This document shows positions 4,143 to 61,047 of a stretch of DNA of 64,000 nt, in pieces. This DNA is from a candidate division CPR3 bacterium GWF2_35_18. GTDB taxonomy: Bacteria; Patescibacteriota; CPR3; GWF2-35-18. Made by a program: the position numbers and the translations under genes. Each line of letters opens with the position of its first letter. The stretch's first letter is position 1. The stretch spans positions 235,786 through 299,785 of the forward strand of contig MESW01000003.1 in assembly GCA_001771135.1 (NCBI GenBank). The letters run 5' to 3'. The notes below the pieces were generated by a model. The model saw nothing but the letters and a program-made list of their open reading frames with translations. It had not been told where the DNA came from and ran no database searches.

Positions 4143-4194
4143 ATATTTTATATTTATCTTATGAAAAACATTACTAATTGTAATTCAAACCGCC

Positions 4195-4223
4195 TTGACA
4201 AGCAACAGCTTAATAAGTACTAT
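4195..4223 (+). promoter_or_regulatory. Sigma70-like promoter (TTGACA-17nt-TACTAT) for the DegT/ColD-like gene, followed by a GAAGGAG RBS
   Basis: TTGACA at 4195-4200, a 17-nt spacer, and TACTAT at 4218-4223. GAAGGAG lies 5 nt upstream of the ATG at 4259. Located in the divergent intergenic region. Confidence 0.45.
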
Positions 4224-4258
4224 TAAAGTCAATTTCCCCATATTATAGAAGGAGTCTT

Positions 4259-6673: not shown

Positions 6674-8376
6674 GGTGTTCCATTCTGAGTTAGAGTTCCG
6701 ATTAAACAAAGATCTCCAGTTTCATCAATGTAAATAGAATTACCTCCTCCAGAATTCTGTATGATAAAGGCTTCCCCGCTTGGGGAATTACAGCTCGCAC
6801 TGCCACCAGCACAAGTACCAGTTTCAATACACATATTTCCAGCAGAACTAATATAACCTACGGTGCTTCCAGCGCTATTTTGAATGATAAATGAGTTATC
6901 TGGAGCGGTACAAGTTGAGGAAGCAGTGCAGGTTCCATCAAGCACGATATTTCCCAAACTACTTAAAGAAGCTCTATTTGTACCTGCACTATCTTGAATA
7001 TAGAATTTCTTTTCACTTGGCTCAGCATAATAAACTCCTGATTCCTCCATTACACACTCACCAAAGCCAAGTTTGAAGTAACCATCACCATTCCAATCAT
7101 CTCCCCAACTATTTTTTACAATCCAATAACTGGTATTATAATCACCAGTGTCATTATATCCAACAAGAACAACAGCATGATTTGCATAAATGGAACCAAC
7201 ACACCTCAAAATATCACTATCCCAATAAGCAAAACTTGGAGGATCAACAGTCCCCACATCAAACGCTATAGACAAAGGACCATATTCAATCAAATCGGCT
7301 TTCATTGTTTCAATATTTGCAGGAACACCCCAAGCAGCCGTTGTTCCCATCGAATCAATTTTCGTTAATCTACTTGACCAGTCTGAGCAGCGATCAGAAC
7401 AGGTACAATCACTACAATTCCAATTGACTTGATAAGTACACTCATCATCACAAACTCCACCTGATCCCTGTGGACATCCAGATGCGCCCCCGTCAATATA
7501 CGGCATACAAGACTCATCAGGTATTCCATAATCCTTAATATAAGTTAAAGCGTAGTCGCTCCAACCACCATTACAAGAATTATTAGCAAAACAATCTGAC
7601 ACTAAATATTGTTCAGAAAAATCCAAATCATAATTAGGATTATTGGTTACAACGTTATATGCTCCTTCTACTGTACCTACTGCTGAATATGCCCAACAAC
7701 TCCCACAATACCCTTGATTTTTTACAGACGTTACCCAGTTACTACCGTTATAATTTCGCCAATCAAAGGTGGATGGACTAGATGTCAAACCTGAAGTTGG
7801 GTTTTTTGGTGCTTCCTCTACCGGTTTATTTTGATACTCCCAAGTGGATGTATTTGTTCTTCCTTTGGTAGATTTTCCAACGATATCCATTATTTTATTC
7901 ACAGATCCCAGATGCTTTCCATCGCTTCTTGAAACACACATAGAATACTCATAAGAATACGGATCTTTCCCATCAGCCACAGAAACTAAATCATAACCTT
8001 TTTGGGTACAATATGAAAATTCCTCTCCGCATTTGCCACGATAAAATTCCCAATCACTGCACGATTTTTTATCAGGAAAAATACAAGCTCCTTGCTGACT
8101 GCCATCATTTTCCGTAATATTCTGGTATTCATATCCCATTTCTTTACAATAAACTGCTGCTGGATTCGATACACCTAGCTTCGGTTGTTCAATTTCTGTT
8201 ATATTTTCGTTTAATGCTTTTAATGATAGATTTACACTAGATGAAGGAAAATATAGTTGAAATCCTAAAAATAATATTAATATAATCAGTAAAAAATCAA
8301 AACCATACAGAATAAGTAACGGTTTATTTTTATGACTAAAAGGTGAAAATTGAGAAAGCTCTTTGAAAATAGTCAT
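6670..8376 (-). CDS. Membrane-anchored papain-family (C1A) cysteine peptidase with an N-terminal DUF333 (putative hemolysin-like) domain and three C-terminal repeats of about 40 aa
   Basis: N-terminal TM helix. A DUF333-like Cys pattern NPAAVYC...GACIF...CSDWEFYRGKC. Papain motifs NQGYCGSCWAYSAVG (catalytic Cys), NHAVVLVGY (His) and VKNSWGDDWNGDGYF (Asn/Trp). C-terminal F(I/Y)IQ(N/D)SAG... repeats occur three times. Confidence 0.75.
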   Translation of the reverse strand: MTIFKELSQFSPFSHKNKPLLILYGFDFLLIILILFLGFQLYFPSSSVNLSLKALNENITEIEQPKLGVSNPAAVYCKEMGYEYQNITENDGSQQGACIFPDKKSCSDWEFYRGKCGEEFSYCTQKGYDLVSVADGKDPYSYEYSMCVSRSDGKHLGSVNKIMDIVGKSTKGRTNTSTWEYQNKPVEEAPKNPTSGLTSSPSTFDWRNYNGSNWVTSVKNQGYCGSCWAYSAVGTVEGAYNVVTNNPNYDLDFSEQYLVSDCFANNSCNGGWSDYALTYIKDYGIPDESCMPYIDGGASGCPQGSGGVCDDECTYQVNWNCSDCTCSDRCSDWSSRLTKIDSMGTTAAWGVPANIETMKADLIEYGPLSIAFDVGTVDPPSFAYWDSDILRCVGSIYANHAVVLVGYNDTGDYNTSYWIVKNSWGDDWNGDGYFKLGFGECVMEESGVYYAEPSEKKFYIQDSAGTNRASLSSLGNIVLDGTCTASSTCTAPDNSFIIQNSAGSTVGYISSAGNMCIETGTCAGGSASCNSPSGEAFIIQNSGGGNSIYIDETGDLCLIGTLTQNGTP

Positions 8377-8400
8377 TTTAAATCCTTTGATGAAATAGAT

Positions 8401-9066
8401 TTAATTCCCTAATCTAACTACTACATTACCGGTATCTTGTAAAAACATTTTTGCTCCACCGAAATTATTTACCATCTCGAGATTATTGGTCGAATTCAGA
8501 TAACCAATATTCCCCGTAGTTGTACCTCCATCCTGACTGAAAGTAATTATTGGCTGATGAGCTTCGTTAACATTGTCCGTATCAGCTTCTATTTTGAGTT
8601 CTATTCCTCCTGTATCCGCTAAATGCAGTTTTGTCGCAGGAGCCGTCGTTCCAACACCCACATATCCGTTATACTTCCAAGTCATAATGTTTCTGGTAGA
8701 ACTGGTTAAAGTATCGTTTAAAAGTCTTAAATCTAACCGATCTAAAGAGCTTGCTCCAGTGTTAAAATTGAATGCACGACGTCCAGTAGTGTTTGCCGCT
8801 GCTTTGTAGGTCACAAATGCGTCATTATTGGCAGCTGAGGCTTCATTAAGAAAACCTGCTGCATACCCCCATCCCTTTCTTAAATGTAAAGGAAATTGAG
8901 GACTGGATGTCCCAATCCCGACATTGCCCGAGACATTAGCATACATATTGGTACCAGAATTAATCCATGAGTTTGCTTCAGCAAATACATCTTTTACTGG
9001 TTTAAAGTTACTTAATAACACACCTATAATTAACAAAAGAAAAAGTATTATTATATTTTTCCTCAT
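8401..9066 (-). CDS. Secreted protein with a signal peptide and repeated GxVGIGTxxPxxxLHL motifs (tail-fibre-like beta-rich repeat)
   Basis: Signal peptide MRKNIIILFLLLIIGVLL. Motifs GNVGIGTSSPQFPLHL and GYVGVGTTAPATKLHL. Confidence 0.5.
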   Translation of the reverse strand: MRKNIIILFLLLIIGVLLSNFKPVKDVFAEANSWINSGTNMYANVSGNVGIGTSSPQFPLHLRKGWGYAAGFLNEASAANNDAFVTYKAAANTTGRRAFNFNTGASSLDRLDLRLLNDTLTSSTRNIMTWKYNGYVGVGTTAPATKLHLADTGGIELKIEADTDNVNEAHQPIITFSQDGGTTTGNIGYLNSTNNLEMVNNFGGAKMFLQDTGNVVVRLGN

Positions 9067-10526
9067 AGACCCTCCTTTAAAGGAATTAATCTGTTTCTAA
9101 TAAAATTGGGAGTAATTTTTTTTAAAATCAACCAGTCTTCTGGATTAAATAATTTAATAATAAAAACTATAATAAAATAAACAATTATATAGGCAGGAAT
9201 TAATATCAGGTTTCTGCCGGTAAAAATTATTAATAAACCCATCATACTGCTTGCAAAAATAATCTTCAAGACTTCTTTCGAAATATCTAATCTAAAGATA
9301 GAATGATTAATATATAAATAACCTAAAATAAAACCAACACTTTCGTTTGCCACTGTAGCAATAGCTGCTCCTTTGATTCCTATCACAGGTATCAAAATCA
9401 GATTAAGGCTAACATTAATCACTAGATTTGCTATTGCTAAGTAAAGATTAATAACAGGGGTTTTTGAAGCATTAATAATTGCACTTGTAATTGCTGAGTT
9501 AAAAAGAGGAATTAAGGCCCAAATTAATATTTGCATTACTACAATAGCCGGAGCAAATTGGTCTCCGTAGAGAAAAAGTATTCCTTTATCAGCAAGTAAT
9601 GTTCCTCCAACAGCTAAAGGAAAAGCAAAAACATTTAACCATTTTAATAGCTGGTTTGTAGATTTAAGTACCAATGGAGAATTTTTATATAGATTTTGGC
9701 TTAAGGTAGGAAAAACCGTAGTCGAAAGTATTTCAGGAATGATTTTAAAAGTTTCCATAATTTTATAAGAAGCTGAATAAAATCCCACGAAAGATAAACC
9801 TAAAAATATCTCAATAAAAATCGTATCTACCCGATAATAAATAATTCCAATGATAGTCATCAAAGCAAAAGGAAAAGTTCCCCGCATGATGTTGATCCAA
9901 TCAACTCTCCCAAAAACAAATCGAATAGAATAGTTCGTCTCTTTACGAAGGGTAAAATGGCAAAACAAAGCTTTGATTATGGAGATGCCAAACATAGTAT
10001 AGACAAGATAAGTTACACCAAAACCATTTAAAACAAGAACGATTCCAATAAGTCCATAAAAAACAGAATCAAAAATTCTTAAGATTCCTTCATATTTCAT
10101 ATTCTCTTTTACACGATAAAGAATGATCCAGTGGCTAGAATATACATTTATTAAGGATGCAAAGTTTAAAACGTTAAATAATACTCTAATCGTTCCATCT
10201 AAAATAAAAATTTGGGTATAAAGGAAAAAAAGAAGCGTAAAAATAAAGTTAACTAAAAAACGCAATGTAAATATTTGAGACTGATAATTATTTACTTTAT
10301 CAATTTCGATTTTGGGAATTTGCCGAATTGTAAAAATATTTAAACCAAAGGTTGAAATACTATCTAATATTGCAATTACAGATGCTGCATAAGCAAGTTT
10401 TCCAAGCTCACCGGAACCTAACTTACGAGCGATAATTATTCCGACTAAAGCCAGTGCAACTTTACCAATTACATTAGTTAATAGTAAAATCGTCGAGTTA
10501 TTAAAAACTCTTTTTGATACGCTCAT
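9063..10526 (-). CDS. Polysaccharide biosynthesis protein / Wzx-type flippase (MOP superfamily)
   Basis: 487 aa with about 12-14 predicted TM helices, in the usual position within a glycan locus. Confidence 0.7.
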   Translation of the reverse strand: MSVSKRVFNNSTILLLTNVIGKVALALVGIIIARKLGSGELGKLAYAASVIAILDSISTFGLNIFTIRQIPKIEIDKVNNYQSQIFTLRFLVNFIFTLLFFLYTQIFILDGTIRVLFNVLNFASLINVYSSHWIILYRVKENMKYEGILRIFDSVFYGLIGIVLVLNGFGVTYLVYTMFGISIIKALFCHFTLRKETNYSIRFVFGRVDWINIMRGTFPFALMTIIGIIYYRVDTIFIEIFLGLSFVGFYSASYKIMETFKIIPEILSTTVFPTLSQNLYKNSPLVLKSTNQLLKWLNVFAFPLAVGGTLLADKGILFLYGDQFAPAIVVMQILIWALIPLFNSAITSAIINASKTPVINLYLAIANLVINVSLNLILIPVIGIKGAAIATVANESVGFILGYLYINHSIFRLDISKEVLKIIFASSMMGLLIIFTGRNLILIPAYIIVYFIIVFIIKLFNPEDWLILKKITPNFIRNRLIPLKEGL

Positions 10527-10548
10527 CTTGAGATTGGATTATATTCTT

Positions 10549-11832
10549 CTATCTTCCGATACCTTTATAAATAATTCTCTTAGTTATGATTTTTTCTTTA
10601 TCGAGCTTATTCATACCATCCGCTATAACTTTGATATTCTTATGTTTGAATATCTTCTCTTCCAAACCTTTGAATTTATCATGCATTGTGCCAAGAATGA
10701 TCGCGGTTGATTTTTGAAGAAGTTCATCTAATGATTTTACGTTGCTGAGCTGAGGAATATACGGATCAAAAACAAGTAAATCAGCTTCGTATGATTTTAG
10801 AATTTTTTGAATAACCAAACACGGACTTTCCCGTAGATCTCCAACATTTGCTTTGTAGCTTAATCCCAATAATCCTATCTTTGTGCCTTTAATTGGCATT
10901 TTAACCTCATTTAGGCCTTCTTGTAATCGAGAAACAAGATATTTTGGCATAGAGTTATTTACTTCACGCGCGGTTTTCAAAAAAAGATGATTGAATCCAC
11001 TTTTTTCCGCGCGATGAATGAGATAATATGGATCAACTGCAATACAATGGCCTCCTACTCCCCGACTTGGAAAGTGAACCATAAAGGAAAAAGGTTTGTT
11101 TGATGCTGCTTTTAAAGTTTCTATAAGATCAATTCCAAGAACATCAAAAGATTGTGCAAGTTCATTCACAAAAGCAATATTTACGTCACGAAATGAATTT
11201 TCAATAATTTTTGAGGCTTCAGCAACCTTAATATTTGAAACTTCATGAATCTCGCCATTCAATATACTTCTATAAAAGTCGGCTACTTCTTTAGTCTTAT
11301 TAGTAGGAATTGCTCCGATATTTCGAGTAATATTATACACATTCCATTTTGGATCTCCCGGATTAATTCTTTCAGGACAAAAAGCCATTGTGTAATCTTT
11401 ACCGGCAACTAAACCTGATACTTCCTTTACAATTGGAATTAATATTTCTTCACATGTTCCAGGATTTACAGTTGATTCAATAACAATCTTATCTCCCTTG
11501 CGTAAATATTTCGCAGCTACTGCCGTGGCATTTTTGATCGGTTCATAGTTTGGAGTATAATCTTCATAAACAGGAGTTGGAACACAAACAATGATAATAT
11601 CACTGTTTTTCATAATATCCGGATTGCTAGAAACATTTAACACATCTAGTTCATATAGATCTTTTGCACACACTTCATCATCGATAGGACATTTCTTCTT
11701 TACAATCTTTTTTATTTTATCGTCAGAACGATTGTAACCAACAGCATCATATTGTTTTTGCTTGGCAATCGCGCACAGAAGTGGTAAGCCAACATAACCT
11801 AAACCGATCACAGATATTTTTTGTTTTTTCAT
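10549..11832 (-). CDS. Nucleotide-sugar dehydrogenase (UDP-glucose/GDP-mannose dehydrogenase family, WbpA/WecC-like)
   Basis: The start is revised to MKKQKISVIGLGYVGLPL (Rossmann GxGxxG), which has an AAGGAAGG RBS. The listed longer ORF overlaps the neighbouring gene. Catalytic-Cys motif GGHCIAVDPYYL. Confidence 0.85.
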   Translation of the reverse strand: MKKQKISVIGLGYVGLPLLCAIAKQKQYDAVGYNRSDDKIKKIVKKKCPIDDEVCAKDLYELDVLNVSSNPDIMKNSDIIIVCVPTPVYEDYTPNYEPIKNATAVAAKYLRKGDKIVIESTVNPGTCEEILIPIVKEVSGLVAGKDYTMAFCPERINPGDPKWNVYNITRNIGAIPTNKTKEVADFYRSILNGEIHEVSNIKVAEASKIIENSFRDVNIAFVNELAQSFDVLGIDLIETLKAASNKPFSFMVHFPSRGVGGHCIAVDPYYLIHRAEKSGFNHLFLKTAREVNNSMPKYLVSRLQEGLNEVKMPIKGTKIGLLGLSYKANVGDLRESPCLVIQKILKSYEADLLVFDPYIPQLSNVKSLDELLQKSTAIILGTMHDKFKGLEEKIFKHKNIKVIADGMNKLDKEKIITKRIIYKGIGR

Positions 11833-11848
11833 AAACCTTCCTTTTGAA

Positions 11849-12802
11849 TTATTTGACTTTCTCTCTCCAGTAATTAAGCAGATCTTCCATGGTTTTGGTA
11901 AATGGGATTTCTGGCTTCCAACCGGTAGCTTTGTTGAATTTGGAATAATCACCGAGTAAAACTTCGACATCAGATGGTCTCATTCTTTTTGGATCCTGTT
12001 TCACTTCAATTTTTACCTTTGACATATCAATTAACATTTTTAACATATCGCGAATGTAGATCGTTGTCCCACTAGCGATATTATAAACCTCTCCCTGCTC
12101 ACATTCTTGGACCGCTAGATAATAACCACGAACCATGTCTCGAACGTCAGTAAAATCCCGTTGCGAATCAGTATTTCCTACAAATAGAACCGGCTTTTGT
12201 TTGCCTACTTCGATCATTGCAACCTGTTTCGCAAAGTTTGAAGTCACAAAAACATCTCCGCGTCGTGGACCAGTGTGATTAAAACCACGGGTGCGGATAA
12301 TTTTCAGACCATAACTTTGATGATACTGATAACCCATATAATCCATCGCCATTTTAGAAACAGCGTATGGTGAAAGCGGTCGTAATTCGTTTTTTTCCGT
12401 TATTGGAGTTTCTTCAGGTTTAACAAGTCCATATTCTTCTGAAGAACAAGCAATCTGAATTACCGGGGTTTGACCTGACTTGCGTATAGCTTCAAAAAGA
12501 TTATTCGATCCCACCACATTAACCTCAAAAGTTGAGGTCGGAGAAATCCATGAAGTAGGCACAAAAGATTGTGCGGCGAGGTGAAAAACCCAATCGAATT
12601 GATGATCTTTGAAAATATTGTTTAGAGAATGAACATCAAGTAAATCTCCTTCAAGTAGATGCACTTTGTGCTCAATATCTTTGATGTGATCCTTTGGTGA
12701 GCGCCAACGATAGAGACCATAAACTTCATGTCCTTCTTTAAGAAGTAATTCGGCAAGATGAGATCCGGCAAAACCGGTTATACCTGTAATAAATGCTTTC
12801 AT
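11849..12802 (-). CDS. GDP-mannose 4,6-dehydratase-family SDR (Gmd-like)
   Basis: Start revised to MKAFITGITGFAGSHLAELLLKEGHEVYG, which overlaps the upstream stop as ATGA and has a GGAAAGGA RBS. Motifs CSSEEYG, YAVSK and GFNHTGPRRG resemble the Gmd TSE, YxxxK and NHESPRRG motifs. Confidence 0.7.
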   Translation of the reverse strand: MKAFITGITGFAGSHLAELLLKEGHEVYGLYRWRSPKDHIKDIEHKVHLLEGDLLDVHSLNNIFKDHQFDWVFHLAAQSFVPTSWISPTSTFEVNVVGSNNLFEAIRKSGQTPVIQIACSSEEYGLVKPEETPITEKNELRPLSPYAVSKMAMDYMGYQYHQSYGLKIIRTRGFNHTGPRRGDVFVTSNFAKQVAMIEVGKQKPVLFVGNTDSQRDFTDVRDMVRGYYLAVQECEQGEVYNIASGTTIYIRDMLKMLIDMSKVKIEVKQDPKRMRPSDVEVLLGDYSKFNKATGWKPEIPFTKTMEDLLNYWREKVK

Positions 12803-29938: not shown

Positions 29939-30085
29939 ATTCGGTGAGAAAACAGAGGTCAGAACAGAAGTTTCTAACTTCTTCTTCTCACCGAAAAATA
30001 CGGAGAGATACAAAACCCATCCTTTGTTAGTTGACCCTTTAAAAGATCAGGAGAGAGTCTCGATGAGTACCAAACAACTGAATAC
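29939..30085 (+). repeat. Conserved promoter/leader cassette, copy 2, driving the CHAP-domain protein gene
   Basis: The TCGGTGAGAA...TTCTCACCGA hairpin has a different inner loop that keeps its own inner stem. The leader is near-identical through CAGGAGAGAGTCTCGATG. Confidence 0.6.
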
Positions 30086-32402
30086 TGTGTCCACAGGAAG
30101 GCGATACTTTTATCTCGCCCTGGTAGTAACTCTACTTACCAGCGTGATTGGAGCCACTACTACTCAGCCGGTCAAAGCAAATGAAGGAGAACCACCGTCA
30201 AATTACCAAGTCTTTCTGCCTCTGATTCAAAAAGAAACCACAGAAAGTAAATGGCAGCTTTTTCAAAACTCGGAGTATCAATATACCTTTGAATTTCCCA
30301 GTGACTGGATCTACAACACCACAACCTCAGAGTATGAAGATGATCCGATTACCTCAAATCAAGTCACGGACATGCACACCCCAAATGGCGAGTTTGTCCA
30401 AGTTATGACATGGAATAACGATCAGGAAAACCTATCTCTGCTCGAATGGTATGAAAAGTATGATTCTTTTCATACCTCTCTGGATAATCCACCAGCAAAT
30501 CTCAACGCACAAATTGCAGGCTTGGATAGTATATACTTTAATCGTCTTACACTCCAAGCCCCGGCGGATATTACCGCGATCTTTAATAAAGACGGTGCTA
30601 TCTTCAGAATCTGGTATGTGGCTAATGAAGATGGAATTGACTATGAAAACTTTCTGCACCTTCTGCAAACCTTCGAATTTGATGGCCAAACAACCTCCGA
30701 TCAAATTCCAGATGTAACGCCAGACATTTTGGTCAAAGAAGTTTCGCCAAACGCTATCGAAGCCAATACCTGTAATAACAGAACCGATCCCAACGGTAAT
30801 CCATATGCATGTTTATGTAGCGGAGCCTATGGTAACTGCACCTGGTGGGCAAACTATATGCGACCTGACCTCCAAAGTATTAATTTTGGTGATGCTAAAG
30901 ATTGGAATGATGTAGTTTTAAATCATTCAAAACTAAAATACCTCCTTCCAGTCAATGGTACTCCAGAACTTGGCGCCATTGCCGTTTTTGAAGCTTATTA
31001 CCCCTGGGGAGGAATTGGAAACTTAGGACACGTTGCTTATGTCACTGGACACAACTCCCAAGACAACACGATAAGTATCTCTCAGATGTCTTGCGGCACC
31101 AACGGTATCCAGGTATATAACAATATCCCTATTGTTTCCGGACAAATCAGCTTCATTCACGGTTCCCCCACAATCTTTGAACACTCAAATTTTCAAGGAG
31201 ATTGGAGTCGTTTTACAGTTGATCTCCTTAATTACTGGGGTGAAAGATACATGTACTCTGAAGATGGCAACTATGCTTACCTCAATGACAGCGCTTCTTC
31301 AGTATGGATACCTCCAGATTACAGTGTCAGTCTTTTCAAAAATAACAACTGGCAATGCCCAGCAAATACCGGGTACCTTGATAACGGAGATCTATATGGT
31401 AGTGATGGTTACCCAGTTCTGGATACCCGATGGAGTAATTTCACATCACTAATGTTTTCTGATAATACCTCCATGAATGATGCTGTCTCTGGACATCAGA
31501 TTGGACACTTTGTCTGCCTTTCGCCTGGTTGCGGCTCCCTTCAGTCTTTCAATTCGGAATACAATAACGAACATACAAGTCCAGACACAATCTATGGAAT
31601 GTGCAGTGGAGCAACACCACCTCACCTCTATCAAGCGTCAGATCTGGTTGTGCTAAATAACCCTGCTCCCGCAGGTATAGATAATACCTTTACCTTCAGT
31701 ATCTACAATGCTGGTGATCTGACATTCAACATGTCTGAAATCTTTGTCTCTGGACACCTTTATGACGGCGGAGCATGGAAAGCCTGGGCGACTGTCCAAA
31801 ACATTGGACCTGGACAAATAAAGACCTTTATCGCTTCTGCCCCAATGTGGGGAGACAAAATCGGATCCTGGTACATCGATGGGATTGTTTACAAATCTAC
31901 ATCCGGTAATTTCTATAATTTACCTGGAAATGGATTCCTGCAAACTCAAAGCTTCACTGTTTCTAATACCGGAGTTTGGCTGTTTCAAGGGCTTCGATAT
32001 GAAGGAATTGGAGAACGATTTTCAAGTAACGATCCCAATCTTTCTAACAATCGTATCGACAACGATACGACAACATCAATTAAAATCTACACCGGGTGGT
32101 ATACCGTTGTCTGTAAAAATCAAAGTTATGGAGGGAGATGCGAATTTTTTGCTTCCTCAGATAATGATCTGAGAAATAACATCGTTGGGAGTAACACGAT
32201 TTCTTCAATCGTGGTATTAAAAAACTGGATGTTTATCAAAGGATCAACTGCGACAATTTACATCATTGAAAACGGTCAAAAAAAAGGTATTCCTTCCTGG
32301 AAAGAATATCTCTGTCTCGGAGGTCAACCCGGAGGTTATATCACTCTACTTGATACAATAGTGTCTCTTATTCCAACTGGACAGGTAAAACACTGTCCGT
32401 GA
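30063..32402 (+). CDS. Secreted/anchored protein with a duplicated N-terminal domain, a CHAP (cysteine/histidine-dependent amidohydrolase/peptidase) domain and a beta-rich C-terminal region
   Basis: Start revised to the ATG at 30063, which has an AGGAGAGAG RBS. The ORF-track start is an upstream TTG. Signal anchor YFYLALVVTLLTSVIGA. CHAP Cys in GNCTWWANY and His in LGHVAYVTGHN. Confidence 0.7.
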   Translation: MSTKQLNTVSTGRRYFYLALVVTLLTSVIGATTTQPVKANEGEPPSNYQVFLPLIQKETTESKWQLFQNSEYQYTFEFPSDWIYNTTTSEYEDDPITSNQVTDMHTPNGEFVQVMTWNNDQENLSLLEWYEKYDSFHTSLDNPPANLNAQIAGLDSIYFNRLTLQAPADITAIFNKDGAIFRIWYVANEDGIDYENFLHLLQTFEFDGQTTSDQIPDVTPDILVKEVSPNAIEANTCNNRTDPNGNPYACLCSGAYGNCTWWANYMRPDLQSINFGDAKDWNDVVLNHSKLKYLLPVNGTPELGAIAVFEAYYPWGGIGNLGHVAYVTGHNSQDNTISISQMSCGTNGIQVYNNIPIVSGQISFIHGSPTIFEHSNFQGDWSRFTVDLLNYWGERYMYSEDGNYAYLNDSASSVWIPPDYSVSLFKNNNWQCPANTGYLDNGDLYGSDGYPVLDTRWSNFTSLMFSDNTSMNDAVSGHQIGHFVCLSPGCGSLQSFNSEYNNEHTSPDTIYGMCSGATPPHLYQASDLVVLNNPAPAGIDNTFTFSIYNAGDLTFNMSEIFVSGHLYDGGAWKAWATVQNIGPGQIKTFIASAPMWGDKIGSWYIDGIVYKSTSGNFYNLPGNGFLQTQSFTVSNTGVWLFQGLRYEGIGERFSSNDPNLSNNRIDNDTTTSIKIYTGWYTVVCKNQSYGGRCEFFASSDNDLRNNIVGSNTISSIVVLKNWMFIKGSTATIYIIENGQKKGIPSWKEYLCLGGQPGGYITLLDTIVSLIPTGQVKHCP

Positions 32403-53822: not shown

Positions 53823-56135
53823 CTATTTCAATACTCCAATAATATCAACCTTACCTCCACAGAAACGAGTAATAAACTCAACGCTTAACTGTAAAGCTTC
53901 CCAGACTTTTTGCGGAGCAACTTCATATACCCCATCAACGTTAATCCAAATATCCCTAGTATCATCTTTTACCAAAGTTCTCTGCGCATCACGATAGTTA
54001 AAATCTAAATTATAAGGCCCTTTTTTATCAAAATAACAGATCTCCCCATTTTTTAGAACAGTTTCTTTTTCGTCTCCATGTAGTAAAATTTTCTCCCCAC
54101 CGGAAGCTGCTTTTAAAAGTGTTGGAAATTGAATATTCTGAAGATCAAAAGCTCCCACGGAAACATGTGTTTTCATCACGACTAGGTTATACGCATCTAC
54201 AAGAGTATTTACACTATATAGCTCTTTGCCTTGCGCCAGTCGTCGTAACAAAGCCTCAGGAGAAGGTCGTCGACTATGCCAGTCAACTCCCATTGCGCGA
54301 TAAAGTTTACGATAACTTAGCAAATTTGGTGATTCTTTTAAACTTTCAACCGTAATCTTACTTAAAGATGCCAGAAATTCTTTTTTGAACTCTGTAAGTT
54401 CTGGTAAAGTTTTGACTATTTTGACGTCTCTAATAATTGCAACTCCCACAGAAATTGAGGGATACTTTTCTTGTAACGATGGATCAATCTGAATTAAATC
54501 TGTATTTCGAAAAAGAGCAAGATCAGAAATAGTTTTTGCTTTTTCTTTATTAACTTTAACGTTTTTAAATTTCTCTGCCACTAAATCTAAATCTTGACTC
54601 AAGATTAAAGCACCTGCCTTAGGACCATATTCTTTACCCAATAATGATTGATAAATAGCAGAAAAAGTTTCTTTAGGTTTAAGGTTTTGACTTTTTCCTA
54701 ACTGATACAAATGATTTTGTATTTCTGTGTCTGATTTAGGATTAACCTTTAGTTCTTTAACATACCCGCTTGCTAAGCTCAAAAAGGCAGTTTGTTCATT
54801 TGATAATCTTGATATAACTGATATTGGGGTATCTTTTTTTACTTCTAATCTAAAATCTTCCGGAGCGTAATTTTTGAGCCACATCTCTGCATACTGTTTT
54901 CGTTCTTTCAGAATATCCAGTTCGACTTTGGTAAGTTTGGCTCTTTTTTCCTTGGCAAAAAAATCAGCTAAAAACTCTACTTTCGGATCTTGAATCGCTT
55001 TCGCGATATCTAAAAATCTCGGAAGAAATTTTGGAGTTTGATAATCTTTTTTATCGTCAATCTGCGCTACTTCATAAATCCGGCCAAAATCATCTGTATT
55101 ACCCTGCTCCCAATAAACATGAGCACAGCGATCATACTCATCAAAAAGATCCGGAATTGTCATACCTTCGGGATCAAAATTGGCTTGTCTGTTATAACGA
55201 TTGCGGGCAAATAGAAATCGTCCAATTGTCGGCGGAAATATTTTTACAAATTCCGAAGCTGAAGTTCCCACACCTTTTGAAGAGGACATCTTCTTCCCTT
55301 TAATCAGAAACCATTCATATGGAATATCGTAAGGATTGGGATAATTATAAACGTCTTTGAGGATTTGCACTGCCATATCGCGAGAACCACCGGCTGAAGA
55401 GTGATCCTTACCTGCGCCTTCGACTGTAATCCCGACTGTCTTCCAATGAGCCGGCCAATCTACCTTCCACATTAGTTTACCGGTACCATTAAATGGTGAA
55501 ACCTTTCCCTCATAACCACAACCTATTGCCCATTTCACCAAATTAGGTACACAGCGGAATGAAACTTCTTTTCCATCCCAATCAAAGACTTCAGTTGTCC
55601 CCACTTTTCCACATTTTGGACAAACAGGCTGAAAAGGATACCAATGTTTTGGTTTATCATAATTACCGACTTCTTTATAAATAAGACGAATCAAATCAAC
55701 TTTATCCAAAGCGGTTTTAATGGCATCATTCATCTTCCCTGATTGATACAGTTCATGTGACCAAAGTATTTCCGGCTTCGCTCCCAACTTTTGCATCGCT
55801 TCAATAAATTCATACGCATACTGATGCCCAAGGCTTTTAGATTTTTTATCCGGCGAGGGAATTGTGAAAAGTGGTTTCCCCATATGTTTCTCATATTCTT
55901 TTTGATCAAGGTAAGAAGGTAAGCCATCCATAGGATCAAAATCATTAAACACGTAGGTATACTTCGCCTTAACTCCCAGGTAAAGTAATGATTTATAGAT
56001 AAAGTCATGAAGAAGCACTCCAACCAAAGAACCCACATGAATCCGACCGGAAGGCGTCTTCATATCATCAACCCACTGGAGTGGTTCACGTCGAGTATTT
56101 TTTATTTCTGTAGCAAGTTTATCAGCCCAAAACAA
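53823..56135 (-). CDS. lysK: Class I lysyl-tRNA synthetase fused to a C-terminal B3/4 (PheRS-beta editing-type) domain. TTG start.
   Basis: MFWADKL..PSGRIHVGSLVG (HIGH region), KMSSSKGVG (KMSKS). The C-terminal approximately 250 aa, ...PNLLSYRKLYRAMGVD..RPSPEALLRRLAQGKELYSVNTLVDAYNLVVMKTHVSVGAFDL...GGEKILLHGDEK..., match B3/4-domain hallmarks. Single uninterrupted 770-aa frame. Confidence 0.8.
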   Translation of the reverse strand: MFWADKLATEIKNTRREPLQWVDDMKTPSGRIHVGSLVGVLLHDFIYKSLLYLGVKAKYTYVFNDFDPMDGLPSYLDQKEYEKHMGKPLFTIPSPDKKSKSLGHQYAYEFIEAMQKLGAKPEILWSHELYQSGKMNDAIKTALDKVDLIRLIYKEVGNYDKPKHWYPFQPVCPKCGKVGTTEVFDWDGKEVSFRCVPNLVKWAIGCGYEGKVSPFNGTGKLMWKVDWPAHWKTVGITVEGAGKDHSSAGGSRDMAVQILKDVYNYPNPYDIPYEWFLIKGKKMSSSKGVGTSASEFVKIFPPTIGRFLFARNRYNRQANFDPEGMTIPDLFDEYDRCAHVYWEQGNTDDFGRIYEVAQIDDKKDYQTPKFLPRFLDIAKAIQDPKVEFLADFFAKEKRAKLTKVELDILKERKQYAEMWLKNYAPEDFRLEVKKDTPISVISRLSNEQTAFLSLASGYVKELKVNPKSDTEIQNHLYQLGKSQNLKPKETFSAIYQSLLGKEYGPKAGALILSQDLDLVAEKFKNVKVNKEKAKTISDLALFRNTDLIQIDPSLQEKYPSISVGVAIIRDVKIVKTLPELTEFKKEFLASLSKITVESLKESPNLLSYRKLYRAMGVDWHSRRPSPEALLRRLAQGKELYSVNTLVDAYNLVVMKTHVSVGAFDLQNIQFPTLLKAASGGEKILLHGDEKETVLKNGEICYFDKKGPYNLDFNYRDAQRTLVKDDTRDIWINVDGVYEVAPQKVWEALQLSVEFITRFCGGKVDIIGVLK

Positions 56136-56589
56136 AGTAAGTTGTCAGTAATTAGTAATCGGTGTCTTATAAAAAAACCCGAAAACCAATACTTAACCTC
56201 CACTAAAATCTTTATTGATAACTGTTTCCTATCATACCAAAAGCTTGATCCAAAAACCAGAGCAAAATATTTACAATTTATTTTCTAGTTTTTGTAATTG
56301 TCGGACAAAAAACAAAAAGTTCTTGACGGCAATATACCCTGTAGATTATTATACCTATAGTTGATCTATTTTAGATCAACTTTTTCATTGCACATCAAAA
56401 GCTGCTTATCCCCAAAAAGCAATCTGGAAGAAGATTTCTATTGAGACTAATTGAATAAAATTTGACTGTCATTTTGACTGAAACTGAGAGATTAATTATC
56501 TGTTAATTTTTCTGTTCCGTCAAAATGACCTTAAAAAAGGCATTTTCAATTTTTGCTTACTAGTGAGTTTTTATACTCGAAAGGAGAAT

Positions 56590-57700
56590 TCTGTTGAAAG
56601 GAGGTGAGGCTGGCTATGAACGCCAATAATACCGTGTGATACTACCTGGCGCCCGCCCCTAGAGGTCACATACCCCGATGGGGCAAATACTCCTAAAGAG
56701 GAGTTCATCTAACCTTTGGTATCGACTGCGCGATCGCGGTACGATGTAATGACCAAAGGATCTTAGTCAGCTAAGTGAGTGGACATGCGTCCTGCTTTTT
56801 CATACTGGCTGACGCCATTTTTCTTTTTGCTAAGGTCCGCGGAGACCTGGAGGCCGACAATGAGTGCACAGATCTTGTGGCTCGATATCTGTATCGGCAA
56901 GTTGTTCATGGCCCGCGTCTTCCGGGATGGTTGCACAACGGTTGAATCCGTTTCGTCTGCCCGGAGCATCTGTGGCCAAATCACCCCCGCGGACACACGA
57001 TGGTATCGCCCAACCTCACGCCCGGAGGGAATTAACCCGACTATCGCCGGGTTTGGCTAGCAGGACTATCTGTGTATCTTTGCGCAAACGCGCTCAATAG
57101 ACGCCCAGTGGGCTGAAATTGTTGCGTCCATGCGCTGCGGATTATCAATCTATTAGTAAGGAGGTGCTCTATCTTCGATACTAACAAGATTCACTCGCTC
57201 GTGTTGGATCTTTCGAAAAGAAAGTTGTGATTCAATCAACTGTGTTTAATCGGCAAAAACTGGAGATCGATCACTCGAAATGTTGAATACCAATAATGTA
57301 CACTCACACCTGTCGCCTTTGACCGCCGATGATCTGCACCTGACCGTCAACCGCCGCGCCGACTACAACCTGAGCCAGTAGCCCAACGATCAATTGCTAC
57401 TGCGAGGTTTTTCGCGAGGTTTGACTAACTCACTTACATTGACCTTGGAGAGGGATATGAGGGACTCATGTCCCTCTCCATGCATTCTCTTGGCCGACGC
57501 GCCAAGATTCAGGGGGAAACAAGGGAGAGACAATTTTTAGACGAGATGGGAATACATTTTTCTGGGGGATTTAAAGTTCTACCCGCCTACCGGTCCGCCG
57601 GAGCCACTTTTACCCACAATCCACAGATTACCAAACCCATCTCGTCTCTCCCAACTCTTTCAAAAACTAATTCCAAATCAACAATATAATATTTCTCGTG
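56590..57700. other. GC-rich approximately 1.1-kb island inside a 1.77-kb gene-free gap. It contains hairpins, a strong SD plus a 7-codon mini-ORF, and short GC3-biased ORF fragments. Candidate foreign-origin or decayed DNA, or a structured RNA.
   Basis: Base composition is visibly about 50 percent GC or more, against an approximately 33 percent background. No ORF exceeds 93 aa. Third-codon-position G/C enrichment is seen in several short frames. Confidence 0.5.
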
Positions 57701-57907
57701 TTATTTTGAGCTCTTATTTATTTATATTTTCACCATGTGGAAGAGTCTAGAAATTCACAATGAACGGAACGTCAAAAAAATGCTCTTGTTTGAGTTCGTC
57801 AAAGGCGACGAGTTAGCTTTTTAGTGGAGTGAGTTGATGAATTTCTTGACGATATAACCTAGTGATGCTTTTTGACTCCAGCTTTTGGCATCGCAAAAGA
57901 TGGAAAA

Positions 57908-59017
57908 TTATCTTAATCTTTTAAAAATCTCGGTATAAACTTTTTCCACATATTCTAATTCTTTAACTTCAACATATTCATCGACTTGATGTGCCTGTAC
58001 AATACTTCCGGCTCCAAAAACAATTGTATTTATACCTGCTTCTTGTAAATCTGCCGCTTCCGTGTAGTATCGGGCTCCAGTTAGTGTAATCTGCGAATCA
58101 ACTTTTTTAATTATTTCAATCATCGAATGGTTATCAACACCCGCTTGAAATGAAGGAAATTTATAAATCTGTTCCACCCTAACTTTATCTTTCAAGACCT
58201 CATCCGTATTCACTAAATTTTGGACTCCCCACAAAATCTGATCCGCATTATATTCTGGAATATAACGAAAATCAATTTTGACTTCACAATAATCTGGAAC
58301 AGTATTTAATACCGAAGTATCTTTTCCACCCTGAATATAACCGATACTAGAAACTCCATTACCCAAAAACTCGTTTTGCTCTTTTTGTAAAATATTAACA
58401 TAGTACTCTTGAAATATATTTAAAAAGTGATTCGCCAGATAGATACTGTTTTCTCCTTCTTCCGGACGCGAAGAATGTACAGATTTTCCTATAAAAGAAA
58501 CTTTCAATCCCGTAATTCCCATGTGCGCAACCAGAATCTCGCGATCAGTTGGTTCGGCAACAAGAGCTTCCTCAATATTTTTATGAAAATCACTTTCAAT
58601 AAAAACCTTAATTCCTTTTCCGGTTTGTTCTTCATCAGCGCTAAAAAGAAAAAGGCAGTTTTCCGGTTTGTTTTTTAAAATCGCTCCAGCTATTGCGGCC
58701 AGAGAACCTTTATTATCACAAGCTCCTCGACCATAAAGTTTTCCGTTCTGAATCTTTCCAGAAAATGGGTCATATAACCATTTGTTTTTATCACCAACAG
58801 ATACGGTATCAAGATGCACATTAAAAAGATATCTTGGTCTTACGCCAAAATAAACAAGCAAATTACTCCGATTATTCTCAAAGCTTTGGATAATACATTT
58901 GCCTTTCGTATTCTTCTCAAAAAAATCTTGCAGATATTCTACAACTTTTATTTCATTTCCGGGTGGGTTCTGACTATCGATCGCAATTAAATTTTGGAGG
59001 ATCTTAACTGTTTTCAT
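57908..59017 (-). CDS. M20-family metallopeptidase/deacylase (ArgE/DapE/YodQ-like)
   Basis: HLDTVSVGD, GRGACDNKGSLAA and SADEEQTG metal-binding motifs. Confidence 0.8.
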   Translation of the reverse strand: MKTVKILQNLIAIDSQNPPGNEIKVVEYLQDFFEKNTKGKCIIQSFENNRSNLLVYFGVRPRYLFNVHLDTVSVGDKNKWLYDPFSGKIQNGKLYGRGACDNKGSLAAIAGAILKNKPENCLFLFSADEEQTGKGIKVFIESDFHKNIEEALVAEPTDREILVAHMGITGLKVSFIGKSVHSSRPEEGENSIYLANHFLNIFQEYYVNILQKEQNEFLGNGVSSIGYIQGGKDTSVLNTVPDYCEVKIDFRYIPEYNADQILWGVQNLVNTDEVLKDKVRVEQIYKFPSFQAGVDNHSMIEIIKKVDSQITLTGARYYTEAADLQEAGINTIVFGAGSIVQAHQVDEYVEVKELEYVEKVYTEIFKRLR

Positions 59018-60306
59018 TTTTTCCTTCTTTTTAATCTCGCTAAATTCTGCGGAACTAGATTGACTTCTCCGCTTTCGGTAAGTAGTTTTGCAACACCAAT
59101 AGTATTTTTATAATCGACTGGATCGCTGTATTTTTTTATATCTAGAGGTAAAGTATGCGTATAATTAGTCGGTTCTGTATAGTTAAATATTAAACCTTCA
59201 TAATTACGGAGCGCGATTTTGTGATTACTCTGGGATAGAACATAATTTGGCATTACTGGAACTTTTCCACCACCACCAATGCCATCGATGACAAAAGTCG
59301 GTACCGCAAAACCGCTGGTGTGACCGCGCAAATTTTCAATAATCTCTATTCCTTCTGATACTTTGGTTCGAAAATGCTCAAGCCCTTGGCTCAAATCACA
59401 TTGATAGATATAGTATGGACGCACGCGATTGACAACTAGCAATTTCACTAGTTTTTTATAAATCAGAGGGTGGTTATTTACCCCACGAAGTAAAACACTC
59501 TGATTGCCAAGAGGAATCCCCGCATCAGCGAGTTTTTGACAAGCTTCTGCCGAAAGATCAGTCATCTCACGCGGATGATTAAAATGAGTATTAATCCAAA
59601 GCGGATGATATTTCTTCAGTATATTACAAAGATTGTCAGTAATTCTCATAGGCATCGTAACTGGCACTCGAGTACCAATACGAATAATTTCTAAGTGATC
59701 AATCACTCGTAATTCTTTCAAAATTACTTCCAGATGATCGTCTGATAAAGTCAAAGGGTCTCCTCCAGAAATAAGGACATCACGAATTGTTTCTCTCTTG
59801 CGAATATACTCTATGGCTTTTTTGATCTTTGACATCGGGGTAGGAATATCTGTTTCTCCCGCATGACGCCTACGGGTACAATGTCGACAATACATCGCAC
59901 ATTGGTAGGTCACGTAAATAATAAGACGATCAGGGTAACGATGAGTTAAGATTCCTTCCAGACCCGGAACAGGACAATCTGCTTCTTCATGCAAAGGATC
60001 TTTACAATCAGTTTTTTTGATATCGGTTTCCGCTAAAGTCGGAATTGCCTGCATTCGAATTGGATCGTTGACTTCATTAGAATCAATTTGCGAAAGATAA
60101 TATGGAGTTATCGCCATCCGTAAAATCTTCAAAGAATCGCTGATTTCCTTTGTAGCTTTGTCACTTAAACCTAAAATCTCCTGTAGTTCTTTAGGATCAG
60201 TAACTCGGTTATTTAGCTGCCAATTATAATCATTCCAATCTCTATCACAAACTTTAAGCCAATATTTATGTTTTTTGGCTTTGGTGAAGAAAAATTTTCT
60301 AGGCAT
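59014..60306 (-). CDS. kamA: Lysine 2,3-aminomutase (radical SAM, KamA family)
   Basis: CAMYCRHCTRRR CxxxCxxC cluster. The N-terminal KYWLKVCDRDWNDYNWQLNNRV is collinear with B. subtilis KamA. 430 aa. Confidence 0.85.
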   Translation of the reverse strand: MPRKFFFTKAKKHKYWLKVCDRDWNDYNWQLNNRVTDPKELQEILGLSDKATKEISDSLKILRMAITPYYLSQIDSNEVNDPIRMQAIPTLAETDIKKTDCKDPLHEEADCPVPGLEGILTHRYPDRLIIYVTYQCAMYCRHCTRRRHAGETDIPTPMSKIKKAIEYIRKRETIRDVLISGGDPLTLSDDHLEVILKELRVIDHLEIIRIGTRVPVTMPMRITDNLCNILKKYHPLWINTHFNHPREMTDLSAEACQKLADAGIPLGNQSVLLRGVNNHPLIYKKLVKLLVVNRVRPYYIYQCDLSQGLEHFRTKVSEGIEIIENLRGHTSGFAVPTFVIDGIGGGGKVPVMPNYVLSQSNHKIALRNYEGLIFNYTEPTNYTHTLPLDIKKYSDPVDYKNTIGVAKLLTESGEVNLVPQNLARLKRRKK

Positions 60307-60416
60307 ATAATCTCCTTCAAATAATCCGCTTTCTGGCGAACTAAATCCTAAACCCTAAGATCTAAACATACCTGCTTAGATCCTAGATCTTATAATTTAG
60401 TATTGATTGGAGCTTA

Positions 60417-60478
60417 GGGGATTGGTGTTTTTCTGTCAAGAAAAAATGATGCGATGCATCCACCAATCCCCTTTTTTG
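60417..60478 (+). terminator. Strong hairpin (11-bp perfect stem GGGGATTGGTG/CACCAATCCCC, 33-nt loop) followed by TTTTTT. There is no plus-strand gene upstream.
   Basis: Read from the sequence. The loop contains TTGACA on the minus strand. Confidence 0.4.
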
Positions 60479-60495
60479 TATCTCTCTGCTCCCTT

Positions 60496-61047
60496 TTAAG
60501 TTTTTTTAGACCAGTTGGCCTTGAGTAACCGACATGCGCCATCAGCTTTAGTGCAATCAACTCCTAACTCTCCACTGCAACAACAAGTTGTTGCTCGAAT
60601 AGCAAGAGGCAATGATGTAAAATCCCACATGGCCATTCCGCCATGAATTAAAGCGGTTATTGCTTTCGAAGTTTTAGCTGTCGCAATAATGCGATGTTTG
60701 CCATTTAATGTCAAAGCTATTCGAACTAATTCCGTTCCGATACCAAGTCCTTGATATTGTGAAAAAACTCCCAGAGTTCCAAGCTCTAGAACACCTTCCA
60801 CTTTAAGATCCCAAAGAGTCACAAAACCAACAAGCTCTAACCCTTCAGGTCTTTCTATGACAGCGGCCACAGTCGCCTCTTTTTTGAGCTGCGGCATAAT
60901 TTCTGCCGGAGCTTTAACTAGCATAATACCTTGATATTCGCGAGTCATTCTGGAAACCTCTTCGGCAATACGAAGGTGATGCTCTGGTGGAATTTGCATC
61001 CCATGAAGAAATTTAACACCATCCACTTTTTCTCTCCTTCTGCTCAT
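60496..61047 (-). CDS. GNAT acetyltransferase (beta-lysine acetyltransferase YodP/AblB-like by context)
   Basis: QYQGLGIGTELVRIAL acetyl-CoA-binding motif. Located next to kamA. Cys-rich C-terminal tail. Confidence 0.65.
   Translation of the reverse strand: MSRRREKVDGVKFLHGMQIPPEHHLRIAEEVSRMTREYQGIMLVKAPAEIMPQLKKEATVAAVIERPEGLELVGFVTLWDLKVEGVLELGTLGVFSQYQGLGIGTELVRIALTLNGKHRIIATAKTSKAITALIHGGMAMWDFTSLPLAIRATTCCCSGELGVDCTKADGACRLLKANWSKKT

Follow-up and report, generated by a model that had tools for sequence, protein, structure and literature searches.

A conserved GC-rich island between an M20 peptidase gene and lysK in a CPR3 bacterium: a non-coding locus and candidate large structured RNA

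The window studied here, a stretch of 64,000 nucleotides (nt) of the candidate division CPR3 bacterium GWF2_35_18 (assembly GCA_001771135.1, contig MESW01000003.1, positions 235,786 to 299,785 of the forward strand), carries in its right part lysK and an M20 peptidase gene, both on the − strand. Between the lysK start (56135) and the stop of the M20 gene (57908), the longest open reading frames (ORFs) are two of 93 amino acids (aa; 56007-56288 and 56779-57060), and this gap holds the element under study, a GC-rich conserved island that we consider as a candidate large structured RNA (Table 1). The GC content of positions 56590-57700 is 49.6%, with an island peak of 55.7%, as compared with a window mean of 34.4% (standard deviation 5.0%, 300-nt windows). 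Elsewhere in the 64 kb, a GC content of at least 46% was found in one marginal window only (31501-31900, 0.463), which lies within a 792-aa ORF (30024-32402). A preliminary description of this DNA had reported a gene-free gap with a GC-rich island, and both points hold: the sliding-window GC profile is not uniform, no ORF there exceeds 93 aa, and no confident gene covers the region.

The same arrangement was found in a second CPR3 species, represented by a 15-kb Logan contig (L049) whose LysK is 72-73.5% identical to that of the window at the amino-acid level, all other LysK homologues reaching at most 56%. Gene order is as in the window (Memo, AMMECR1, GreA, GNAT, M20, a gap of 2.18 kb, lysK), and the island of the second species, located at about 8040-9240 (to about 9520 when extra motif copies are included), has a GC content of 0.50-0.61 against 0.416 for the contig and is collinear with that of the window. 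At the nucleotide level, lysK is 72% and M20 66% identical between the two species (64% for the M20 protein); identity is 46-50% at third codon positions, compared with 71-88% at the first two. Two parts of the island can be aligned as blocks. Over 115 nt, Block I reaches an identity of about 97%, compared with 88% and 77.5% for the best 120-nt windows of lysK and M20, respectively, and is, on this comparison, the most conserved DNA of the locus; a non-coding block conserved above its neighbouring genes, which we looked for as one mark of a large structured RNA, is present (Block I against lysK). Block II is longer and aligns without gaps. The unalignable remainder stays GC-rich and hairpin-rich in both species. 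As judged from these alignments, the blocks show strong purifying selection.

The preliminary description had also seen a protein-like codon usage, biased in GC at third positions (GC3), in several short frames, and its favoured reading was a pseudogenised fragment from a high-GC donor. Neither idea withstood analysis, the second being contradicted by periodicity, codon phases, indels, protein searches and synteny alike. The signal-to-noise ratio of the 3-base periodicity is 1.57 in the island, against 1.5 in shuffled sequences and 8.6-16.6 in six genes of the window, and the density of stops is close to random in each of the six frames, with TAA, TAG and TGA mixed. A recoded element with a reassigned stop codon was ruled out, all three stops occurring in every frame. 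When Block II is compared with the second species, the mismatches fall 28/21/28 on the three codon phases, whereas in the flanking genes identity is 0.33-0.50 at third codon positions versus 0.63-0.88 at positions 1 and 2. The indels between the two islands measure 1, 2, 4, 7 and 10 nt and are not multiples of three, the 1-nt indel lying inside Block I. Searches for relatives gave the same answer: no ORF or stop-to-stop segment of either species had a match in Pfam or PHROGs, a search of 1.84 billion representative proteins with a 97-aa frame yielded just three tandem-repeat (satellite-like) artefacts, and among 5.8 billion proteins a profile built on the Block I ORF found the two species themselves and nothing else. 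The periodicity, third-position substitutions and relatives of a protein-coding gene are thus all missing, and these tests show that the island is non-coding. A candidate small peptide, MLNTNNV...TADDLHLTV (...TTADLRLAV in the second species), was considered and rejected, with mismatches of about 9/13/10 by codon position (hand count) and a 10-nt indel that deletes its N-terminus in the second species. Mobile elements and prophage remnants were looked for as well; the island has no match in phage and plasmid collections (blastn) or among viral contigs (DNA or pseudo-protein searches), there is no second copy of it within the 64-kb window, and the called ORF was found in this genomic context only, so that neither the similarity nor the multiple copies of such an element were observed. 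Because the blocks are conserved, the substitutions are spread evenly over the codon phases and an indel falls in a loop, the island is under purifying selection as non-coding sequence and is not a decaying foreign gene.

The folding of the island was compared with that of shuffled sequences. The minimum free energy (MFE) of the whole island gave z-scores of −4.1 (+ strand) and −3.7 (− strand) against dinucleotide shuffles, the coding controls giving +0.3 and +1.1. Over both species and both strands, for lengths of 1.1-1.2 kb, the scores ranged from −3.7 to −4.4, a stability well beyond that of the shuffles. In windows of 200 nt, the excess stability is located at 56600-56800 and 57300-57650. 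We also compared consensus folds with those of column-shuffled alignments. Block I together with the long stem next to it gave z-scores of −5.1 and −5.4 on the two strands, the long stem −3.0 (−) and −4.9 (+), and Block II −2.9 to −3.1 on the − strand, where none of 200 shuffles went as low, as against −0.6 on the + strand. Of the 56 pairs in the structure predicted for Block II on the − strand, 7 are changed on both sides and yet remain paired, a number reached by 3 of 500 shuffles, and sliding the 3' partners by 1-3 columns lowers the pairing from 100% to 34-51%. This pattern is suggestive, two sequences being too few for an R-scape-type test. At the M20 side, a common architecture is predicted in both species, made of a 17-bp composite stem around a diverged interior, a linker, a short hairpin and a 14-bp hairpin. 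Within the stem, the arms AGACGAGATGGG and CCCATCTCGTCT lie at 57539-57550 and 57636-57647, with 85 nt between them; like every other inverted repeat quoted in the preliminary description, they were found in the sequence. In the second species, the 57446-57480 hairpin differs by a 1-nt insertion in the loop and by a C-to-T change that gives a G.U pair on the − strand only.

None of the Rfam 15 covariance models had a match at its gathering score across the whole window, which settles a check that the preliminary description had proposed. Even at E≤10, the region 56100-57950 gave chance-level matches only, with bit scores well below the gathering thresholds, and the island of the second species likewise gave nothing beyond chance at E≤1. 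The families covered include OLE, GOLLD, ROOL, HEARO, T-box, lysine riboswitch, transfer-messenger RNA (tmRNA), RNase P, rRNA and group I/II introns, and as a positive control for the search, the tmRNA of a sibling strain (contig L004, see below) scored 125 bits. A scan of the window for tRNAs and tmRNA found none. Two specific ideas were discarded on these results. A tmRNA was considered for the island, the sibling strain having smpB and tmRNA beside M20; the model that detects the tmRNA of that strain finds nothing in the island. A relic of the 16S 3' end, suggested by UCACCUCCUUUC, has no match to the rRNA models. Finally, a literature search for large non-coding RNAs of CPR3 or Patescibacteria found nothing relevant. 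The protein and RNA searches together show that the candidate matches no known RNA or protein family.

The lysK side of the island carries promoter-like and Shine-Dalgarno (SD)-like sequences. A sigma-70-type promoter faces the island, and at the aligned position the second species has TTGACG-18-TATATT, the −35 hexamer lying in a 20-nt identical block and the spacer being diverged. The extended −10 of lysK, which we infer to be the promoter of that gene, is also within a block conserved in the second species, and the two promoters would form a classic divergent pair. Between them, the palindrome just upstream of the −35 reads TTGTCCGACAA in the second species (common form TTGTC(G/C)GACAA), and may be a regulatory operator. 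Both species carry GAAAGGAGGTGA at the edge of the island that faces lysK, followed, after 8-9 nt, by an ATG and a 7-codon ORF. The ATG and the stop of this mini-ORF are in the same alignment columns and the peptide is MDVRMNS in the second species, meaning that the length is conserved and the peptide is not. The preliminary description had noticed the mini-ORF and its strong SD; the mini-ORF stands as described, whereas the letters given for the SD were one base off, the actual sequence being TGAAAGGAGGTGAGGCTGGCTATG. On the + strand, GGAGG and CCTCC occur 4 and 0 times in the window island (P 0.01), and 6 and 0 times on the corresponding strand of the second species (P 0.002). The 7-mer AAGGAGG is present twice in the window island (0.04 expected) and four times in that of the second species, with fewer than 0.1 expected. 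In total, there are three SD-like copies in the window and five in the second species, most of them without a following start codon. About half of the genes of the window carry an SD of the AGGAG type.

Table 1. Features of the gap between lysK and the M20 peptidase gene (window coordinates).
Feature	Positions	Strand	Remarks
Extended −10 TGGTATGAT, candidate lysK promoter	56231-56239	−	About 100 nt upstream of the lysK start
Palindrome TTGTCGGACAA, operator-like	56298-56308		Just upstream of the −35, between the divergent promoters
Sigma-70-type promoter TTGACG-18-TATTAT	56323-56352	+	Faces the island, divergent from lysK
Inverted repeat GTCATTTTGAC / GTCAAAATGAC	56461-56536		AT-rich stretch between promoter and island
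GC-rich conserved non-coding island, candidate large structured RNA	56575-57660		Defined by GC content, collinearity with L049, MFE z-score and non-coding character
SD-like copy 1, GAAAGGAGAA	56579-56588	+	Imperfect; read from the sequence
SD-like copy 2, GAAAGGAGGTGA (TCACCTCCTTTC on the other strand)	56596-56607	+	GAAAGGAGGTGA kept in L049
Mini-ORF of 7 codons, MNANNTV + stop	56616-56639	+	Begins 8 nt after SD-like copy 2
Long hairpin CCTTTGGT...ACCAAAGG	56713-56759		First of three consecutive hairpins; arms 56713-56720 and 56752-56759
Block II, 225-nt conserved block without gaps	56848-57072		66-78% identical to L049
SD-like copy 3, AAGGAGG	57158-57164	+	No start codon after it; AGAAAGGAGGTGAAAC in L049
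Block I, most conserved core	57436-57550		4 differences in 116 alignment columns; 50-nt exact run 57501-57550
Near-perfect 14-bp hairpin GGAGAGGGA...TCCCTCTCC	57446-57480		In Block I; 57446-57461 with 57465-57480, 94% complementary
Hairpin TTGGCC-GACG-CGCCAA	57490-57505		In Block I; sole L049 difference in the loop
Invariant 17-nt linker GATTCAGGGGGAAACAA (UUGUUUCCCCCUGAAUC on −)	57506-57522		Predicted mostly unpaired
Long stem of the M20-side end, GGGAGAGAC/GTCTCTCCC + GAGATGGG/CCCATCTC	57523-57652		Variable interior of about 85 nt
Repeat element A, 190 nt	57730-57919		Reaches from the final 12 nt of M20 to the island, which it bounds on the right
Terminator-like hairpin, then AGCTTTTTAG	57793-57814	+	Possible 3' end of a + transcript; inside element A

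Among the remaining features of the gap, the arms of the inverted repeat that precedes the island (56461-56482 with 56515-56536) are 22 nt long and 82% complementary, and are not conserved in the second species. The hairpins that the second species has in the 170-nt segment equivalent to the 56713-56759 region differ in sequence, and the evidence here is weak. The second species also has an inverted repeat of 28 nt (7780-7807 and 9923-9950, 89% complementary, (AGTAGT)n-like) that brackets its M20-lysK gap, the two arms being 2115 nt apart; on a read-through transcript, its pairing could make a single giant loop of the gap. In the window, only the lysK-side copy is present.

By its flanking proteins, the window belongs to GWF2_35_18 of Rifle groundwater (NCBI GCA_000991025.1 and sibling assemblies), and the integrity of the locus was verified on other assemblies. 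At least three independent ones (L001/L040, L002 and L039) run through the complete island at 100% identity, and many further contigs tie it to M20 or to lysK. The chimeric assembly contemplated in the preliminary description is therefore excluded, all the more since the second species repeats the arrangement. Numerous contigs of various samples and assemblers end within the island, at 56879, 57032-57062, 57108, 57145, 57285 and 57572. The NCBI records LBQV01000051/55 and MESV01000051/55 also break there, so that the element is not intact in these deposited genomes, and two NCBI contigs overlap within the island by about 27 nt only. GC or coverage bias, structure or strain variation may lie behind these breaks. 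To the right of the island, the 190-nt repeat element A is present twice in the sibling strain, at 2563-2752 and at 3228-3416, the second copy being 87% identical and located after smpB, upstream of the tmRNA gene. The contig of the sibling strain is 100% identical to the window through M20 and element A; the two part exactly at 57729/57730, and the island therefore has on its right a junction that is strain-variable or bounded by a repeat. Each copy of element A contains two hairpins and ends in a −35-like TAGACT, 17 nt before the −10-like hexamer of the next unit. Contig breaks within element A (57758 and 57805) are those expected of a multi-copy repeat. In the sibling strain, positions 2753-9589 contain smpB, the tmRNA gene (tag AKNYNDADLGNEDGFAAPSYAFAFA), a segment of 24-31% GC and three tRNA genes, in this order; the segment has genes for an SduA_C (Shedu-like) protein, a response regulator and a GIY-YIG protein, and looks like a defence islet beside tmRNA.

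The island has a narrow range. The LysK relatives at 52-54% identity have lysK 27-85 nt after the preceding gene, without an island or an nhmmer match, and in one case (L056) greA abuts lysK. More generally, no gap or island was seen in the LysK relatives at 52-56%, with the exception of one contig (L050) that starts too near lysK to tell. A LysK scan of genome contigs gave relatives of at most 53%, and the island is absent from the 28 GTDB loci obtained. A covariance model of Block I had no match in any of the other loci collected. Two metagenome scans found no third homologue, their pseudo-protein patterns having been poorly chosen (one ran across an artificial junction), and a 19-mer of Block I gave three chance matches in a metagenome scan. 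From the absence of the island in the more distant LysK relatives and GTDB loci, the GNAT-(KamA)-M20-island block seems to have arisen as a novelty within a narrow lineage of CPR3.

As for the neighbouring genes, the LysRS encoded by lysK (53823-56135, −) is a class I enzyme of 770 aa with a C-terminal B3_4 domain, an architecture common to thousands of proteins of the Candidate Phyla Radiation (CPR); in the second species it is split into ORFs of 533 and 377 aa (9958-12712). lysK has a TTG start without an SD, and ACTAAT/ACTGAC-type repeats upstream that are conserved in both species. On the other side (59014-61047, −), the genes for KamA (lysine 2,3-aminomutase, LAM_C), a GNAT acetyltransferase and the M20 peptidase are clustered beside lysK. 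This cluster recalls the genes for beta-lysine/acetyl-beta-lysine. The sister species lacks KamA, and in a more distant relative (L054) lysK follows a lysine biosynthesis cluster of the LysW/LysX type.

Altogether, we regard the island as probably a functional non-coding locus of a narrow CPR3 lineage, and most likely as one large structured RNA, which of the three explanations offered in the preliminary description is the best supported. The RNA would most likely measure about 1.1 kb here, and in the sister species 1.2-1.5 kb. Transcription of the + strand would start from the promoter at 56323-56352, beside the operator-like palindrome. In the 5' part, the SD-type sites GAAAGGAGG, together with the + strand mini-ORF, would load 30S subunits or ribosomes, and by analogy with the STAB-SD system this loading could shield a long untranslated RNA from 5'-exonucleolytic decay. 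The 3' part would contain the nearly invariant core, Block I, closed by the 17-bp stem, and this stem would, with the terminator-like hairpin at 57793-57814, protect the 3' end. Our working guess for the core is a stable RNA, either trans-acting or serving as the scaffold of a translation-linked ribonucleoprotein. Whichever strand is transcribed, the motif content would link the RNA to the SD/anti-SD interaction. The most specific form of the proposal, a new structured RNA of CPR3, 1.1-1.5 kb long, with its own regulated promoter and directly engaging ribosomes or the ribosome-binding sites of mRNAs, is put forward tentatively, as possible but far from assured.

Several observations weigh against a single large RNA read from the + strand. 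The centre of the island (56800-57300) has a local fold z-score near 0, and outside Blocks I and II there are few short shared motifs, the rest being about 40% identical and effectively unalignable. Island homologues are limited to two species, hence weak covariation statistics. Promoter-like matches are frequent in AT-rich DNA, with 3.9 expected per 2 kb. The terminator-like hairpin recurs in the A' copy of the sibling strain and is not specific to the island. That strain, which comes from another sample, is identical to the window up to 57729 and then continues into smpB and not into the island, meaning that either the island is dispensable at this site or the neighbourhood is variable. As to the strand, the consensus energy of Block II is −58.5 kcal/mol on the − strand versus −51.65 kcal/mol on the + strand, and is significant on the former only; several substitutions give G.U pairs on the − strand only; and the MFE of the − strand is lower in both species, the shuffles showing the same offset.

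We slightly favour the + strand as the RNA, because of the conserved promoter, the SD-ATG mini-ORF and the strand-specific motif, the − strand being nearly as probable. A slight excess of G over C is found on the − strand in both species, and such composition skews do not decide the strand. The rival that takes up these points is a structured RNA in the M20-to-lysK direction, arising from the M20 operon by read-through or processing, or else from a weak promoter at the border of element A, which would act as an anti-SD mimic on the SD regions of mRNAs. Such an RNA would contain CCUCCUU(UC) three to six times, i.e., the 3' tail of a Gram-positive-type 16S rRNA, and the invariant C-rich linker UUUCCCCCUGA; the motifs, which then read CCUCCUUUC (16S tail), would together with the UUUCCCCCU linker pair with SDs of mRNAs, like the seeds of RsaE/RoxS and RNAIII. 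The idea agrees with the consensus z-score of Block II, significant on that strand only, with the G.U-type substitutions in the helices 92-101/246-255 and 193-199/213-219 of Block II and in the Block I hairpin, with the lower MFE and the G-over-C excess, with the strand-specific enrichment of CCTCC in a genome region where about half of the genes have an AGGAG-type SD, and with the presence on this strand, in the second species, of a hairpin CTCCTTTCACAAGGAG and then ATTTTTGT where the island ends towards lysK. It nevertheless lacks a conserved promoter upstream, the canonical conserved promoter and the SD-ATG mini-ORF face the other way, the long-stem region scores higher on the + strand, and the energy difference between the strands is also seen in shuffled sequences. 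We thus hold this anti-SD mimic to be rather unlikely, although it is the strongest of the rivals. A giant cis-acting leader of lysK, T-box-like or lysine-riboswitch-like, would also be read from that strand. The better structure of Block II on the lysK strand would fit, as would a position that in both species is upstream of a gene for an aminoacyl-tRNA synthetase, but the absence of any T-box or lysine-riboswitch match even at E≤10, the AT-rich and mostly unconserved spacer of 450 nt before lysK, the conserved extended −10 that lysK has about 100 nt upstream of its start, and the leaderless lysK of distant relatives, 27-85 nt after the preceding gene, make it quite improbable.

The other rivals do away with a single RNA, or with RNA altogether. 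The island could be a cluster of smaller elements, with Block I as a small RNA or protein-binding module of about 120-230 nt, Block II, and regulatory hairpins set in fast-evolving GC-rich spacers. Conservation restricted to two blocks and a few short motifs, in a remainder of about 40% identity, and strong local folding at 56600-56800 and 57300-57650 only, are what such a cluster would give. It accounts less well for a GC-richness and a length that are kept over the whole 1.1-1.2 kb in both species despite the turnover of the sequence, for a whole-island z-score of −4, and for the lack of a conserved internal promoter or terminator, and we consider it unlikely. An element acting at the level of DNA, such as a series of palindromes that bind proteins, or a site of recombination or replication, is less probable still. 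Several conserved cores are indeed palindromic (CCGCGG twice, AGATCT, perfect hairpins), Block I is equal on both strands and assemblies often break in the island; against this, the fold of Block II is strand-asymmetric with G.U-type substitutions, the repeated motif keeps to one strand, the island is faced by a promoter, and no recombinase or replication gene is associated with it. Decayed genes from a high-GC donor, or intact genes for small proteins such as the 66/93-aa ORF at 56779-57060, are very improbable. GC3-like skew is seen locally at 56785-57085 and 57235-57385, and in each species ORFs of the same phase remain open on the two strands, the 66-aa ORFs being collinear and free of indels. 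The even phases of the substitutions, where real genes have an excess at third positions, the absent periodicity, the lack of true relatives among 1.84 billion representative proteins, Pfam and PHROGs, and the 1-nt indel within the most conserved block all speak to the contrary, and neutral decay would not leave conserved blocks at a syntenic site. As for an assembly chimera, it could be invoked for the many contigs, including those of NCBI, that stop inside the island and for the departure of the sibling strain into smpB at 57729, but in view of the three assemblies that span the island at 100%, the other contigs that join each flank, and the same arrangement in a species from an unrelated sample, its probability is negligible.

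The large structured RNA considered here can be compared with known systems. The RNAs OLE, GOLLD, ROOL and HEARO measure about 300-800 nt. Like them, the island is long, devoid of ORFs, far GC-richer than its AT-rich genome and of narrow taxonomic range, and highly conserved cores alternate in it with variable, hairpin-rich stretches, the whole folding well beyond its shuffles. It differs from them in that their Rfam 15 models do not match it, in its occurrence in CPR3/Patescibacteria, in the absence of a characteristic partner gene, in its greater length (about 1.1-1.5 kb), and in being found in two species only, without a covariation-grade structure. With the leaders of the T-box and lysine (L-box) type, it shares the position upstream of lysK in both species; it is four to five times larger, matches none of their models and is separated from lysK by the promoter of that gene. 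Foreign-DNA islets and pseudogene remnants resemble it by their deviant composition, the lack of long ORFs and the strain-variable junction at 57729/57730, but the island is syntenic in a second species, its blocks are more conserved than the flanking genes, and it has no coding signature or protein relatives. The seeds of small RNAs such as RsaE/RoxS and RNAIII are C-rich and pair with SD regions. If the − strand were the RNA, the island would have in common with them CCUCCUU(UC) and the invariant, predicted-unpaired UUUCCCCCU; it would be ten times larger, with no homology found, and its motif would be the full anti-SD tail instead of a short C-run. If, on the other hand, the + strand is the RNA, and only then, the comparison is with STAB-SD, a ribosome-dependent mechanism of 5' stabilisation in RNAs of Gram-positive bacteria (PMC4113751). 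As in the cry3A leader and ermC-type leader peptides, the GAAAGGAGG of the island is perfectly complementary to the 16S tail and would lie in an untranslated region, and its copies are mostly without a start codon, one of them preceding a very short ORF with an unconserved peptide. Unlike STAB-SD, the island has several copies, some of them hundreds of nt from the putative 5' end.

To our knowledge, bacteria very rarely have non-ribosomal structured RNAs of more than about 500 nt, and none is known from the CPR. Each of those found so far (OLE, GOLLD, ROOL, HEARO) opened new biology. If the proposal is true, the island would encode the longest non-ribosomal structured RNA reported in bacteria, either a stable RNA that loads 30S subunits or an anti-SD decoy. 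CPR genomes are tiny, and 1 kb of useless DNA is not expected in them; here, the most conserved sequence of the locus is non-coding and lies above an aminoacyl-tRNA synthetase gene, with a conserved promoter and SD-type motifs. The island is thus a testable candidate for a translation-linked class of RNA in organisms that are not yet culturable, and GC-rich islands in AT-rich CPR genomes may be a productive hunting ground for such RNAs.

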